Positions 2,295 to 31,350 of a DNA stretch of 55,556 nucleotides are shown here, one piece after another. The DNA is from Promethearchaeota archaeon (GTDB taxonomy: Archaea > Asgardarchaeota > Lokiarchaeia > Sigyniarchaeales > SOKP01): positions 10,952 through 66,507 of the forward strand of contig JBHLMP010000003.1 in assembly GCA_048938025.1 (NCBI GenBank), written 5' to 3'. The notes beneath the pieces are model-generated. The model was not told the DNA's origin, ran no database searches, and saw nothing but the letters and a program-made list of their open reading frames with translations. The position numbers and the translations under genes were made by a program. Each line of letters opens with the position of its first letter. The first letter of the stretch is position 1.

Positions 2295-2951
2295 TTAGGT
2301 CTTGAGATTTAATTTATTTTGAAATTCTTTAAAAACTTGATAGATATCATCTACTATTCTCTCACTAAATCTTCTATTTTCAGAGAGTTTAGTAGAATTA
2401 TTTAAAACTCTTTTATTTATTTTATCAATATTTGTTTGAATTTCCTCCATCCCAGGGAATTTTTCTATATTTTTTTTTAAATCTTCAAATAACTTATTTA
2501 TTAATTCGATCTCTTTAAATTCCCTTAACTTTATAGCATCCATAAGTGTTATAAATGATGACGTTATCTCTAAAGTTATCCCAGGCAATTCCAATACTGA
2601 TGCTCTCATCTTTTTTGAAAATTGGGATCCTTGTCTATCTTTACTTCCTAATCCTTCATTAGAAAGATCTAATGAAGAAATTTCATTAATAATATCAATA
2701 GCTCTATAGTAATCTTGAGTAAGTTTCATTTTTTTTAAAAGTTTAGAAAGAATTATTTTTTTATCATTCAAAGAAAAATTAAATTTAAGTAACTCATTGG
2801 TAGAATTCTTAATAGTTTTTAGAAAGAAATTTTCTTTAATAACTCCATTCTGGTACTTCTCATATAAGTTAAATATAGTATTTAATAGTGCAAATAACTC
2901 AGATTCAATTTCAGGTTCGATTGTAAGAGATTTATCGTTATCTGGTGTCAT
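2295..2951 (-). CDS. vps28: Vps28-like ESCRT-I subunit
   Basis: ELFALLNTI..L..KY..G.I N-terminal pattern and EITSSFITLMDAIKL, matching the Vps28 FIT.MD.L+L motif. Confidence 0.75.
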   Translation of the reverse strand: MTPDNDKSLTIEPEIESELFALLNTIFNLYEKYQNGVIKENFFLKTIKNSTNELLKFNFSLNDKKIILSKLLKKMKLTQDYYRAIDIINEISSLDLSNEGLGSKDRQGSQFSKKMRASVLELPGITLEITSSFITLMDAIKLREFKEIELINKLFEDLKKNIEKFPGMEEIQTNIDKINKRVLNNSTKLSENRRFSERIVDDIYQVFKEFQNKLNLKT

Positions 2952-26645: not shown

Positions 26646-27401
26646 TTAATTTGATATATTTGGTAATTTAATTTCGGGTTGATCTTCACCAATAATAAAT
26701 GTATAATCGTATAACGTCTCTGTAATTTGTGAATTATGCTGAATTGAAACTGTACTTGCTTTGGGACCAAACCTTTTAGTAATATTTAAAATTTTTCCAA
26801 TTTGTCCGATATTTTTTCCAGACATAATAATTGCTAAATTATTCTCTTTAAATTTTAAAATTTTCAAAATTTCTTGCTCGGGGATGGAAATCTTTAAGAC
26901 ATCCATTCTTTTATAAATATCTTCTTTAGGATTTTTCGGATCATTAACCTTTATTAAAATATTTCTTCCATCATGAAGATTTAATTGAATATGACCGCCT
27001 TTAATAGTTGTTTTTTGGATTATTCTACACAATTTAAATAGACTTTCCTCTTTTTTAATTTCATGTAATATTAAACCATAATGAGAATCTGGTAATACAC
27101 GAAAATATTTATTCATTTTTTCGATAGAAAGAACATCCATTAATCCAACCGGAAATGCTTTATCTTTGACAACTTTTCCATCTACTTTAAAATATCCTAA
27201 TCCAATAATTTTTTTCGCTTCTCTATAGTTATCTACAATCTTAAGAAGATCTCTTATTATATGGAGAATTGGTAAACAAAATTTACTAGGATGAGGTCCT
27301 AGGGATGATTTTATGAAAAATTTACCATGTTTTCTTTTAATTTGTAAGAATGCTGGAGTATTTAATCTCTTTAATGTCTTCTGTTCTCCATGACGAGTCA
27401 T
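26646..27401 (-). CDS. rps4e: 30S ribosomal protein S4e
   Basis: LKRLNTP, GPHP, FPVGLMDV, QLNLHDGRN; start at MTRHG. Confidence 0.96.
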   Translation of the reverse strand: MTRHGEQKTLKRLNTPAFLQIKRKHGKFFIKSSLGPHPSKFCLPILHIIRDLLKIVDNYREAKKIIGLGYFKVDGKVVKDKAFPVGLMDVLSIEKMNKYFRVLPDSHYGLILHEIKKEESLFKLCRIIQKTTIKGGHIQLNLHDGRNILIKVNDPKNPKEDIYKRMDVLKISIPEQEILKILKFKENNLAIIMSGKNIGQIGKILNITKRFGPKASTVSIQHNSQITETLYDYTFIIGEDQPEIKLPNISN

Positions 27402-27841
27402 ATTTCTTTTTCTACCTCCTTCTCTTTTTTCGGAGCAGTTAATTCTTCCTCCCAAAATCCATATAATGCTTTTCTCTCAATCATTTTAGCACGCCATGGA
27501 TCCATTTTCTTTTCTTTTGTTAATTTTGTAATAACTAAATTTGAAATATGAATAGGAGGATTGAATGCAGTTCCATCTGTTTTCTCCAACTGGGCTTCTT
27601 TGATTTTTACCCCCTGATCTTTTGTAATTTCAAGTACTTCACCTTCAAAATCTTTAAACTCACCTCGACACACTTTTACTTGGTCACCGACTCTAAGAGG
27701 GAGCCGTTTAATTCCATACTCCTCCCGCAGAAAATCAGCAATTCTTGTACTAATTAATTTTGATCTTTGATGATTTTTGTAATTGTATAAAGCTTTTCTT
27801 TGCTTACTTGGTTTTTTTGATTCAATTTTCACTTTTACCAC
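27398..27841 (-). CDS. rpl24: 50S ribosomal protein L24 (uL24)
   Basis: SKKPSKQRK, LRVGDQVKVCRG, PIHISNLVITKL. Confidence 0.96.
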   Translation of the reverse strand: MVKVKIESKKPSKQRKALYNYKNHQRSKLISTRIADFLREEYGIKRLPLRVGDQVKVCRGEFKDFEGEVLEITKDQGVKIKEAQLEKTDGTAFNPPIHISNLVITKLTKEKKMDPWRAKMIERKALYGFWEEELTAPKKEKEVEKEI

Positions 27842-27854
27842 TCTAATACTGATA

Positions 27855-28280
27855 TTAAATAATTAATGATGATATTGATGCTAATCTCGGAAACATTTCA
27901 GCAGCTTCTCTTGCAATTGGTCCTCTAATCTCTGTACCTCTTGGATCACCTTCCTTAGATATTAAAACACCTGCATTATCTTCAAAACACAATCGTGTTC
28001 CATCTAAGCGCCTATAAATCATTCTTTGTCGTACGATAACAGCTTTTAAAATATTTCCGCGCATTTCAGGTTTTCCTTTCTTAATTGTAACCGTACATAC
28101 ACTTCCAACGGTTGCTTTAGGTAATCTTGTTAATCTTGTTTTACTATGGTCAACATTAATAATTTGAGCAATCTTTGCTCCAGAATTATCCGTAATGAGA
28201 ATTTTGGAGCCATTGCATAACCCATAACTCGTTCTTGGTTTAACGACTCTTTTATGACCTAATTTTCTTCTTGTTCCCAT
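27855..28280 (-). CDS. rpl14: 50S ribosomal protein L14 (uL14)
   Basis: DNSGAK, FEDNAGV, GPIAREAA. Confidence 0.97.
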   Translation of the reverse strand: MGTRRKLGHKRVVKPRTSYGLCNGSKILITDNSGAKIAQIINVDHSKTRLTRLPKATVGSVCTVTIKKGKPEMRGNILKAVIVRQRMIYRRLDGTRLCFEDNAGVLISKEGDPRGTEIRGPIAREAAEMFPRLASISSLII

Positions 28281-28631
28281 TTACATCGCCGTACTTGAAA
28301 GTTTTTCTAATACAATAAATGCTTTGGTTTTTGATATTTTACGAGATTCACCTACTCTTACCATATCGCCAATTTGAACCTCATGATTTAAACATGCTGG
28401 TAAATGACATGCAAGTCGTGAATTACGACGTTCATATCGTTGATATTTTCTTACAAATTGAAGATAATCCTGTCTTATAATTACGGTATTTCTTGATCTT
28501 TTACTTACTATAACTCCTTTGGTAACTTTTCCTCTTATACGAGTAGTACCATGAAATGGACAACATTTGTCATTGCATTCGCTTACTTTGGGAGGATTTA
28601 CTCCAGGAATACCAATATTTCGTGCACTCAT
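28281..28631 (-). CDS. rps17: 30S ribosomal protein S17
   Basis: CPFHG, KYQRYERR, RKISKTK. Confidence 0.97.
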   Translation of the reverse strand: MSARNIGIPGVNPPKVSECNDKCCPFHGTTRIRGKVTKGVIVSKRSRNTVIIRQDYLQFVRKYQRYERRNSRLACHLPACLNHEVQIGDMVRVGESRKISKTKAFIVLEKLSSTAM

Positions 28632-28632
28632 T

Positions 28633-28929
28633 TTATTTCTTCAACCATTTTTTCTTTTTTAAACTTCTTAATCTATTTACGGGAATTCCAACAATATTAG
28701 ATCCGTTCACTTCCAAAATTCCATCTACTATTTTAAACCTAAATATATGATCTTTTTTAATATATTTTTTAATCACATTATTTTTTTGTGTTATTAACAT
28801 ATTTCTTGTTTCATCAATTACAACCTCAACATCAGAAAAATCTGCGTCATTTGGTTTTGATTTGGGTTTTATATTTACCGATAAACCAATTAAATCATGA
28901 TATATTAGATATTTTGGATTAATAGTCAT
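28633..28929 (-). CDS. rnp1: RNase P protein subunit Rpp29/Pop4
   Basis: HDLIGL, VIDETRNML, VNGSNIVGIP; position between rpl29 and rps17. Confidence 0.92.
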   Translation of the reverse strand: MTINPKYLIYHDLIGLSVNIKPKSKPNDADFSDVEVVIDETRNMLITQKNNVIKKYIKKDHIFRFKIVDGILEVNGSNIVGIPVNRLRSLKKKKWLKK

Positions 28930-29123
28930 TTTTCTTCATTTATTACTGTTAGTATTCTAGCTATTTGCTTTCTTAACATTTTTGCTTTTGCAGGGTTATC
29001 AGTAACTCCGCCACCAGTTTGGGAGGAGAATAACATCATTAATTGCTCTCTTAAATCATTTAATGCCCTTTCTCTTTCCCTTTCATCCATCTCTCGAACC
29101 TTCTTGGCAGTTATGATATCCAT
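28926..29123 (-). CDS. rpl29: 50S ribosomal protein L29
   Basis: VREM, NPAK...RKQIARILTV. Confidence 0.95.
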   Translation of the reverse strand: MDIITAKKVREMDERERERALNDLREQLMMLFSSQTGGGVTDNPAKAKMLRKQIARILTVINEEK

Positions 29124-29154
29124 ATCTTACCACATTTTTGTATTTTTATTTTAA

Positions 29155-29980
29155 TTATTTTTCTTTTTCAACCTTTTTATTTGGCTCTAATGAAATCTCA
29201 GAAATATCTTCTTCATCCACTTCATCGAGCAATGCTTTATCTTCCTCACTTAGAACTCCCTCTTCTTCCACCATTTCATAGTCTTTTTTCAATTTTTTCT
29301 CTACTCTTGTTTTGGTTAACTCTGCTGCTTTTTTTGCCTGAGCTTGTGCTAGGAGTTCCTCTTTAATTGTAATATCATCCCCCATTTTAGTATCGGCTCT
29401 CATTACTTTTACTATTACTCCTAAAACTCCTGATTTTTGAATACATTGAGCAACTCCTTTATCTACCCCTTCTTGAGCGGGTTGTCCCGATTTTGACATC
29501 GTTCCAGCACGAAATATTTGCGTACGTGCGCGTTGTGAAGTCACTTTACCGGATATAATTATTTCCACACCTTTCGCACCAGCATCCATTACTTTACGAA
29601 GGATGTAGTAACCTGCTCTTCGATAATGCCTTCCTCTATCGAGACTGTATGCAAGCCTTTCAGCCATAATTTGTGCATCTAAATCAGGCTGTTCTACTTC
29701 CTCTACTTCTATTTGTGGCATTTCTAATCCAAATTTATCTTGAAGAACATCTGTAATTTCTTGGATTCGTTTTCCTCCCTTACCAATTACTAATCCCGGT
29801 CTTGATGTCTTTAACGTAATACGAACTCCAAGGGGAGTTTTTTGGATGTCAACGCCTGCAAATCCAGCACGAACCAGTTCAGAACGTAAATATTCGTTTA
29901 TTTGCATTAATTTGATACCTTGCTCGATTTCACTTTAGGAAAGTCTTACTTTACCTAATGAAGTGTTTAGCAAGCGGCAT
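29155..29980 (-). CDS. rps3: 30S ribosomal protein S3, split gene: exon 1 29960-29980, exon 2 29155-29928 (264 aa spliced)
   Basis: KH motif RPGLVIGKGG and GAKGVEIIISGK; SD GGTGA before ATG 29980; spliced N-terminus MPLAKHF|IEQGIKLMQINEYL aligns without gaps to the uS3 N-terminal helix. Confidence 0.93.
29929..29959 (-). other. Candidate 31-nt bulge-helix-bulge (tRNA-type) intron in rps3 pre-mRNA
   Basis: Central helix CACU/AGUG, bulges UC^A and AA^A, inner hairpin UUAGG-U-AAAGU-AAG-ACUUU-CCUAA, outer helix CUUGCU/AGCAAG; in-frame TAA if unspliced. Confidence 0.85.
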
Positions 29981-30062
29981 CAATATTCACCAACCATCTT
30001 GTAATTTATCACCAGTTATATTTTTTTTATTCATATTTCAATTAAATTTTAAAAATTCATAC

Positions 30063-30542
30063 CTAACTTGGAAATTCATAGATTACGATTTCAACATGAC
30101 TTAAATTTTTAAATTTAGCAGTTGATCGACCCTGAGCTCGTGGCATATACCTTTTTATTATTCTTCCCCTATGTGTTGCCGCATGGATTATTCTGCATAA
30201 TTCTGTATCTAAACCTTTATATTCAGCATTTGATTCAACAGAGGCAAGAATCTCATAAATCCTAGATGCCGCTTTCTGAGGATATCTTCCAGCATACCAT
30301 TTAAATTGTTTCAGATCTTTTTTATGAGCAAGTTTTTTCTTGTGTCTTCTGAAAGGGACTGATTGTTTTAATTGAATTACATTTTCTAAAAAAGTCTTAG
30401 CTTGATCGATTTTCATCCCTTTTATTGTGGCACAGATTTCTCTGGCATGTTTAGGTTTGATTCTTAGATCTCTACCTGCTGCTTTTGCCAGTCTTTCGGC
30501 ATCATATTTCTGTTCTATGAAAGAATAACCCCAGTTAGGCAT
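30063..30542 (-). CDS. rpl22: 50S ribosomal protein L22
   Basis: KHAREIC, GRYPQKA, NAEYKGLD, PRAQGR. Confidence 0.97.
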   Translation of the reverse strand: MPNWGYSFIEQKYDAERLAKAAGRDLRIKPKHAREICATIKGMKIDQAKTFLENVIQLKQSVPFRRHKKKLAHKKDLKQFKWYAGRYPQKAASRIYEILASVESNAEYKGLDTELCRIIHAATHRGRIIKRYMPRAQGRSTAKFKNLSHVEIVIYEFPS

Positions 30543-30584
30543 TTAATCTCATCTTTCTTATTTAATGTTTGATTATAATAATTT

Positions 30585-31106
30585 TTATTTCAAAGGAACG
30601 AATTTACTTGAACGTGTGGCTCCTATTCCAGGACTTCCATGCTGAACTCGCCTTCTTGTTAATGAAAATTCTCCAAGATAATGTCCAATCATATCTGGTA
30701 GGACTTCTACGATTTCAAAATCTTTTCCATTATAGACACCAATCTTAAGTCCACACATTTCAGGAAAAACAATCATATCGCGTACATGTGTTCTTGTAAT
30801 TAAATCTTTACCTCTTTTCTTAGCACGATAAGCCCTTCTTAATCTCTCGAGTAATTTTTTTTGTCTAGGAGGTAGTCCTCTACGCAATGATCGTCGTGCT
30901 CTTGCTGGTAATAATTGAATAAATTGGTCCATGTTCATCTTCTTTAATTCATCTAGCGTATAACCTCGATATTGAAATTGCAATTTCCTTCTTTCTTCTT
31001 CCAAATCTAACTCTTCCTCTAACTCTTCCTCAATTTCTTCATCAGAGATATCTTCTTTTTCATTTTTTTCCAATTCTTCTTCATTAAATTGTTCATCCGG
31101 AGCCAT
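30585..31106 (-). CDS. rps19: 30S ribosomal protein S19 with acidic N-terminal extension
   Basis: [36 protein letters not shown]. Confidence 0.97.
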
Positions 31107-31350
31107 TTTTAAACCAATCTGCTTGTTCCATTTATTATATTATGTAATTTTTTTTATAATTTTATTCATTACGGTGAGGTTTTAAGTAATATATCAAATT
31201 TTAATTTTATTAAAAAGAGATATAAATCTAAGAAAAAACATAAAACTTAAAAGTCTTAGATACACATTTGAAAGATTTTTTGTTTATCTTCAAATCTTAA
31301 ATTTTATCGAATATTTCAATTGTTCTCTTTTAAAATAGGTAAAATGATTA

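Follow-up and report, generated by a model that had tools for sequence, protein, structure and literature searches.

A probable tRNA-type mini-intron in the ribosomal protein uS3 gene of a Promethearchaeota archaeon, and similar inserts in other protein-coding genes of its genus

The window analysed here, a stretch of 55,556 nucleotides of a Promethearchaeota archaeon (contig JBHLMP010000003.1, positions 10,952 to 66,507), carries on its minus strand a ribosomal-protein operon (27398-31106) in which Pfam matches and open reading frames (ORFs) identify uS19, uL22, uS3, uL29, RNase P p29, uS17, uL14 and uL24. The uS3 gene of this operon, rps3, is interrupted close to its 5′ end by a short insert that is the subject of this work. 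Exon 1 (29980-29960) consists of the start codon and six further codons, ATG CCG CTT GCT AAA CAC TTC (MPLAKHF), and is preceded, 6 nt upstream of the ATG, by a Shine-Dalgarno-like GGTGA (29987-29991) that is retained in two other insert-bearing genomes. The insert itself, ATTAGGTAAAGTAAGACTTTCCTAAAGTGAA, is 31 nt long (29959-29929). Exon 2 (29928-29155) comprises 257 codons and a stop codon (29157-29155), starts ATC GAG CAA GGT ATC AAA TTA ATG CAA, encodes a product beginning IEQGIKLMQINEYL, and contains an internal in-frame ATG at 29907. The length of the insert is not a multiple of three and an in-frame TAA lies two codons into it; without splicing, translation from this ATG would end after MPLAKHFIR. 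The sole frame for rps3 in the ORF list is 250 amino acids long and starts at 29907. A preliminary description of this DNA, which had proposed a bulge-helix-bulge (BHB) intron in the gene of an Asgard-like archaeon, is confirmed letter for letter on the minus strand as to sequence, coordinates and the 31-nt length of the insert, and the closest named relatives are indeed Promethearchaeota assemblies.

The product of exon 2 (P0001, 257 amino acids) is recognised as uS3 by NF003219 (263.8 bits) and TIGR01008 (247.4 bits). Its first residue aligns to position 8 of 229 in one archaeal uS3 profile and to position 6 of 195 in another, and its match begins at chain residue 8 or 9 of uS3 in the solved Thermococcus and Pyrococcus 30S structures. 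As these alignments start past residue 1, about seven upstream residues are missing from exon 2 (five to seven by profiles and structures), which leaves room for the seven that exon 1 supplies and agrees with the original assignment of the gene. P0001 is the single uS3 match in the whole genome (3.52 Mb in 88 contigs, 96.7% complete, 5.1% contamination), in which a second, intact rps3 had been named as an observation that would speak against an intron. The 31-mer occurs once in the genome and, allowing up to three mismatches, once in the window.

The BHB motif, the defining substrate of the archaeal splicing endonuclease EndA, consists of two 3-nt bulges with a 4-bp helix between them and is described as occurring “in some cases” in pre-mRNA (PMC6379350). 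The central helix (H2) is formed by CACU at the end of exon 1 (29962-29965) and AGUG at the 3′ end of the insert (29931-29934), with all four base pairs present, and is bounded on opposite strands by the bulges UCA (29959-29961) and AAA (29928-29930). The inner hairpin (29935-29958) contains five pairs UUAGG/CCUAA and five pairs AAAGU/ACUUU, an AAG loop and one unpaired U. The outer helix (5′ strand 29966-29974) is imperfect: A29966 pairs with U29927, a 2 × 2 internal loop follows, and CUUGCU (29974-29969) then forms six pairs with AGCAAG (29919-29924). If each bulge is cut behind its second base, at 29960/29959 and 29929/29928, 31 nt would be lost and the joined RNA would encode the N-terminus found in intron-less relatives; the 5′ cut agrees with the junction defined by homology. 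An unconstrained fold of 29912-29982 recovers the helices that had been proposed, with a minimum energy of −23.7 kcal/mol against −10.66 ± 2.55 kcal/mol for shuffled sequences (n = 200, z = −5.11, none as low), and its centroid retains the 4-bp helix between unpaired stretches. In 2,000,000 random (place, length) pairs drawn from this genome, a fully paired H2 in BHB geometry occurs at a frequency of 2.56%, and a fully paired H2 together with an AAA 3′ bulge at a frequency of 0.15%.

The predicted junction was compared with rps3 of related archaea. A protein search detected uS3 in 39 of 41 genomes (the genome itself, its genus and its order), and the 5′ end of the gene was examined for 29 of the 30 loci returned, L022 being excluded as its contig breaks off within rps3. 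The insert is present in two of the 29 (this genome and G012); the remaining 27 read without interruption from F to I or V at the predicted cut, their commonest 5′ end being ATG AGT CCT CTA GTG AAA AAT TTT^ATT GAA CAA GG (here and below the caret marks the cut). Among 80 named loci from GTDB species genomes with Promethearchaeota, Promethearchaeia or other Asgard titles, two carry the insert (L148 and L149, 97% and 95% identical) and 78 are contiguous at the junction, three of these with R in place of K. The two sets, which possibly share genomes, jointly give 107 of 109 loci without the insert. L150 (90% identical), the nearest intron-less locus among the 80, encodes exactly MPLAKHF^IEQGIK, and MPLAKHF directly precedes IEQGIK in other intron-less relatives and in the public uS3 proteins P0002 (97% identical, 264 amino acids), P0004 and P0006 (94%), which begin MPLAKHFIEQGIK and have lengths of 264 and 262 amino acids. 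The predicted spliced product, with the junction MPLAKHF-IEQGIK that had been claimed for it, is thus the ordinary protein of the closest kin.

The presence or absence of the insert can also be read directly from DNA. A 111-nt probe spanning it matches from end to end in three of the 54 genomes of the genus set (G000, G012 and G043), matches only from base 68, which corresponds to 29928, the first base of exon 2, in 43, and finds no match in eight. The named assemblies L148 and L149 are probably the same as the genus genomes G012 and G043. An error of assembly or sequencing, or a pseudogene whose working counterpart failed to assemble, has the draft state of the genome in its favour, with the contig number, completeness and contamination given above. 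We consider it hardly credible, as the same insert occurs in three genus genomes and in two named assemblies (probably overlapping sets), an 800-nt contig from DNA run X1 (29381-30180, depth 56) bridges it without a difference, there is a single uS3 match in the genome, and the remainder of rps3 is intact and 97% identical to the intron-less allele. DNA lacking the insert, which would have pointed to an assembly error, was found neither in the three assemblies nor in the X1 contig.

The database uS3 entries for the contigs of L148 and L149 are 250 amino acids long and begin MQINEY. Gene callers start at the internal Met and thereby hide exon 1 of insert-bearing rps3, as the preliminary description had recognised. 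The same facts could be read differently, with the insert retained in the mRNA and translation starting at the internal Met (29907) to produce uS3 minus its first 14 residues, exon 1 being a decaying remnant and the 9-codon ORF noise or a leader peptide. The only plain ORF does begin at 29907, the 250-amino-acid call recurs in all three insert-bearing lineages, and the available RNA runs, which have zero depth at this site, leave such a start uncontradicted. We nevertheless regard it as very unlikely. Exon 1, its ATG and its GGTGA are intact in all three genomes, and the 14 residues in question lie inside uS3 profiles and solved uS3 chains and are conserved in the 107 of 109 loci that lack the insert. 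Decay would not be expected to preserve a BHB with cuts that restore the frame exactly. Furthermore, like inserts described below lie in the middle of the genes for aIF2-gamma (in the P-loop), DnaG and a JAB/MPN protein, beyond rescue by an internal restart.

In relatives, rps3 is interrupted by BHB-type inserts at two other sites. Site 2, in the KH-domain motif I-G^K-G-G, holds inserts of 30-31 nt with a 3′ bulge AAA in L023, L024 and L189. Site 3, at L-E^M-P-Q, holds inserts of 30 nt, in frame and with a stop codon, in L017 (identical to L180), L023, L024, L150, L189 and L218. The inserts at these two sites lie within L024:1464-1632, L023:2005-2173 (minus strand), L189:730-897, L150:367-444, L017:2014-2091 (minus strand) and L218:790-867, and some of the genes hold both. 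At site 3, the inner stems of the six loci all differ in sequence and stay complementary: 85.4% of cells are paired, both sides have changed in eight of 16 pairs (in the inner helix, seven of eight), and none of 500 shuffles attains the covariation score, while partners slid out of register are paired in 26-66% of cells. The central helix at this site is relaxed (62.5% paired, with one position never pairing), and exon CTG/CTA covaries with intron GCCT/GCTA.

In the neighbourhood of rps3 we also observed the following. Upstream of the L023 gene (G022:C12, about 2700-2803, minus strand), a partial, stop-bearing second copy of rps3 codons 16-50 is fused to the end of uL22, with about 500 nt and a small Cys-rich ORF between the partial copy and the full gene; this looks like a local duplication or insertion. 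In the window, uS19 (30585-31106, minus strand) begins with an acidic stretch of about 70 extra residues, its Pfam match covering only residues 72-156 of 173.

The rps3 insert is one of many in its genome and genus, a point that the preliminary description had missed. A scan blind to structure was carried out by comparing the 5905 ORFs of at least 60 amino acids from G023, a one-contig relative (2,265,924 nt, 81% complete), with this genome by tblastn and retaining matches split by 8-400 extra bases in the latter. Nine split matches, two of which represent both strands of one place, define eight places, three of them gene boundaries and five of them short inserts at which G023 is contiguous: 29 nt in the P-loop of aIF2-gamma (GHVDHG^KTT; C39:14890-14918, plus strand), 40 nt in DnaG (AIFGQ^TEG; C14:21819-21858, minus strand), 31 nt in the JAB/MPN protein (HSHPGF^K; C9:20655-20685, minus strand), 25 nt in a thioredoxin whose family match is under the NCBIfam cut-off and over that of Pfam (C48:85756-85780, minus strand), and 29 nt in a 4Fe-4S protein (C4:12494-12522, plus strand). 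All five show a fully paired H2 and an AAA 3′ bulge at the cuts that restore the protein of the relative, a combination with the background frequency of 0.15% given above. Their inner helices range from strong (six pairs in the JAB/MPN insert) to weak (two pairs, a mismatch and one pair in aIF2-gamma), and several of the inserts lie within highly conserved motifs such as the P-loop and HSHPGF. As the comparison is blind to first exons no longer than that of rps3, to genes missing from G023 and to inserts common to both genomes, the six insert-bearing genes represent a lower bound. The reciprocal comparison (6310 ORFs of this genome against G023) returned three weak split matches, and G023 seems poor in such inserts among shared genes.

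A genome-wide scan for BHB motifs joining open frames yielded about 1.1 million and 446,289 hits by structure. It showed no excess at the BHB cut over a 3′ cut shifted by 1-4 nt (for instance, 71 joins at the BHB cut and 60-85 at shifted cuts for AAA bulges flanked on both sides by 100 codons or more), and it cannot list introns because gene boundaries swamp the signal. The idea that the inserts are copies of a repeated element was rejected: each of the six is unique in the genome, and any two have no more than 8-9 nt in common. The 3′ two-thirds of the 4Fe-4S insert has a 20-nt, 95% match antisense in the RtcB locus (C68:33844-33863, E = 0.011), which is probably due to chance. The aIF2-gamma of the genus (L228:1501-3045 in G023; C39 here) is extended at its N-terminus by about 100 residues, which include a helix-hairpin-helix domain (PF14520, residues 4-58).

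Across the genus set, occupancy of these sites is patchy. The aIF2-gamma site is interrupted in six of 54 genomes, by the 29-nt insert in G000 and G043 and by an unrelated 30-nt insert, in frame and with stop codons, in G001, G003, G054 and G062; the two unrelated sequences at this P-loop site (L298 and L303 for the 29-nt form; L255, L299, L300 and L301 for the 30-nt form) represent either independent gains at one site or an inner stem that turns over very rapidly. Interruptions of the JAB/MPN site occur in 12 genomes (nine with split matches, three in frame with stop codons), and those of the DnaG site in about 16, as judged from split matches and stop codons and not base by base. This genome has the rps3 and DnaG inserts in common with G012, but not those of aIF2-gamma and JAB/MPN, and has the rps3, DnaG and aIF2-gamma inserts in common with G043. 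With sites occupied in three to about 16 of the 54 genomes, and sometimes by unrelated sequences, ongoing gain and loss are indicated. We think it probable that the genus hosts a population of tRNA-type mini-introns of 25-40 nt in protein-coding genes, which in this genome would affect six genes or more and which across the genus would occupy three sites of rps3.

The nine split copies of the JAB/MPN insert allowed pairing to be compared between relatives. In these, 88.9% of cells are paired, both sides have changed in seven of 12 pairs, and the helix between exon and intron is paired in all nine, with GC replaced by AU once and CG by UA twice; none of 500 shuffles reaches this level, and slid partners are paired in 18-59% of cells. 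The genomes being kin, the shuffle counts overstate independence, and the slid controls and the double changes between exon and intron are the stronger evidence. Compensatory changes are present in two groups of sister inserts, those of the JAB/MPN gene and those of rps3 site 3; the three copies at the rps3 site of this genome are too alike to show any.

These comparisons also bear on the possibility that the ribosome jumps over the insert, whether through translational bypassing of the kind known from phage T4 gene 60 or through some other recoding event. The two genes share a short untranslated gap within a coding sequence, a hairpin and a nearby stop codon, and in rps3 the hairpin is stable and directly follows a short coding stretch. 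However, the take-off and landing codons are unmatched in rps3 (TTC before the insert and ATC after it), and the TAA lies two codons inside the insert instead of at the take-off site, which speaks against programmed bypassing or frameshifting, for which matched codons or a slippery site at the gap would be expected. The sister inserts, at 25-40 nt and with differing flanks, have in common a BHB geometry conserved in its pairing and not a hop signal, and the pairing that covaries joins exon to intron in the BHB register. Skipping by the ribosome is therefore extremely improbable.

The enzymes expected to remove a BHB intron are encoded in this genome, as the preliminary description had presupposed. 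Two paralogs of EndA (PF01974, 105.1 and 70.3 bits) are present as ORFs of 201 and 200 amino acids (L031:1168-1770 and L032:1441-2040, minus strand), both containing the N- and C-terminal endonuclease domains (TIGR00324, 117.7 and 87.5 bits), and the RNA ligase RtcB is found with 566 bits. By these matches, a splicing endonuclease and an RNA ligase would both be available, and the EndA acting on rps3 is most likely a heteromer of the two paralogs.

ARAGORN finds 32 tRNA genes in the genome, which suggests that many are missed, and predicts introns in 18 of them, often at odd positions and with odd anticodons. The pattern is consistent with the heavy interruption reported for Asgard tRNA genes, in which many introns, gained repeatedly, are reported to lie at BHB motifs (bioRxiv 10.64898/2026.10.13.758758); the words “mRNA” and “ribosomal protein” do not occur in the preprint. 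The introns of tRNA genes have the same motif of two 3-nt bulges and a 4-bp helix (PMC6379350), and the same enzymes are expected to act on them. They differ from the inserts described here in that the host of the latter is an mRNA, in which the cuts must restore the frame and translation can compete with splicing.

Removal at the RNA level might conceivably be the work of something other than EndA and RtcB, for example a different nuclease with its ligase or an element that cleaves itself. All six mRNA inserts have the 3′ bulge AAA, which is found in none of the six tRNA introns that could be fitted to a BHB out of the 18 unreliable-looking ARAGORN calls, and this hints at a constraint beyond that of a generic BHB. 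On the other hand, the tRNA side of the comparison depends on those unreliable calls, and the geometry of the inserts is the one that defines an EndA substrate (PMC6379350). A group I or group II self-splicing intron was rejected, as these need a ribozyme core of a hundred to several hundred nucleotides and the insert has 31, and a search of 29700-30200 against Rfam at E values up to 1 gave no family match. We thus give a route other than EndA and RtcB only a slim chance.

Several observations weigh against an intron in rps3 or temper the case for it. The three copies of the insert at this site are near-identical and display no covariation, and the one base that differs lies inside the insert and opens the loop-closing pair. 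The 2 × 2 loop breaks the outer helix and makes the motif slightly relaxed. EndA cuts after the second nucleotide of each bulge, a rule corroborated here by the comparative junctions alone. Run X1 may be the source sample of the assembly and hence not an independent proof of the DNA state. Three metatranscriptome runs (X18-X20, holding 5-7% of the sampled words), mapped to 28600-31200, have zero depth over 29905-29991, and the in-frame ATG at 29907 could in principle yield a shortened uS3.

Considering (i) the state of the DNA in three genomes, (ii) the fold of the insert, (iii) the junction encoded by intron-less relatives, (iv) the two EndA paralogs and RtcB, and (v) the sister inserts, we infer that rps3 is spliced, with respect to cleavage and ligation and to their timing relative to translation. 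We put the probability that the 31 nt at 29959-29929 are an archaeal BHB intron within the coding sequence of the single uS3 gene at about 85%; even taken together, the alternatives discussed above are unlikely. Most likely, this lineage splices many mRNAs with its tRNA-splicing enzymes.

We propose that expression of rps3 would proceed as follows. The operon would be transcribed with the insert included. In the pre-mRNA, exon 1 would pair through its last bases, CACU, with the AGUG of the insert’s 3′ end, placing the two 3-nt bulges four base pairs apart. The splicing endonuclease, most likely the heteromer of the EndA paralogs, would then cut after the second base of each bulge, and RtcB would ligate the exons and probably circularise the 31-mer. 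The joined mRNA would encode MPLAKHF followed by IEQGIK, giving full-length uS3 of 264 amino acids, and unspliced RNA would yield from this start a peptide of nine residues only.

A precedent for such splicing exists in Crenarchaeota. As stated by Yokobori et al. (PMC2738675), pre-mRNA splicing in archaea was confirmed for cbf5 only, in one phylum, and predicted for other genes. The cbf5 intron of Desulfurococcales and Sulfolobales is, like the insert in rps3, a short intron with a BHB or relaxed BHB in a protein-coding gene; the lineage that harbours it has a hetero-oligomeric splicing endonuclease, and the distribution of the intron among relatives is patchy, with gain and loss (PMC2738675; PMC5829648). 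The present case differs in its host, an archaeon of the Asgard group and Promethearchaeota, in its gene and position, uS3 with the insert 21 nt past the beginning of the start codon, and in not being a lone case, with at least six genes in the genome and three rps3 sites in the genus. Furthermore, splicing of cbf5 was shown experimentally (PMC2738675), whereas that of rps3 is deduced from DNA. Our literature search, which did not extend to subscription journals and supplements, turned up no paper describing BHB introns in rps3 or in protein-coding genes of Asgard archaea, in line with the preliminary description, which knew of no rps3 case. Introns of this kind are known from crenarchaeal cbf5; what looks new is the wider setting, with inserts in many genes and at many sites, and with polymorphism between closely related genomes.

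Outside archaea, the mRNAs of HAC1 and XBP1 are spliced by a non-spliceosomal endonuclease, IRE1, and an RNA ligase, which in animals is RtcB; the XBP1 intron has 26 nt and its removal shifts the frame. The rps3 insert resembles these in being a short mRNA intron whose non-spliceosomal removal would change the frame. It differs from them in that IRE1 reads paired stem-loops and not a BHB, and that splicing of HAC1 and XBP1 is a regulated stress switch. The suggestion that splicing of rps3 couples ribosome synthesis to tRNA-splicing capacity is a speculation.

If the transcripts of rps3 and the other insert-bearing genes are spliced, production of an essential ribosomal protein, an initiation factor and the primase relies in this Asgard archaeon on the machinery of tRNA splicing. 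Gene callers would systematically truncate or split such genes, as illustrated by the insert-bearing uS3 entries of 250 instead of 264 amino acids. The inserts would provide defined substrates for determining what an (alpha-beta)2 EndA accepts outside the body of a tRNA, and how protein-coding genes gain and lose introns would be open to study in 54 closely related genomes of the lineage that stands nearest to eukaryotes. EndA and RtcB would then be required, in the archaea most closely related to eukaryotes, for genes at the core of translation and replication to be expressed, and the genus would exemplify, in living cells, how introns can spread into mRNAs when there is no spliceosome.

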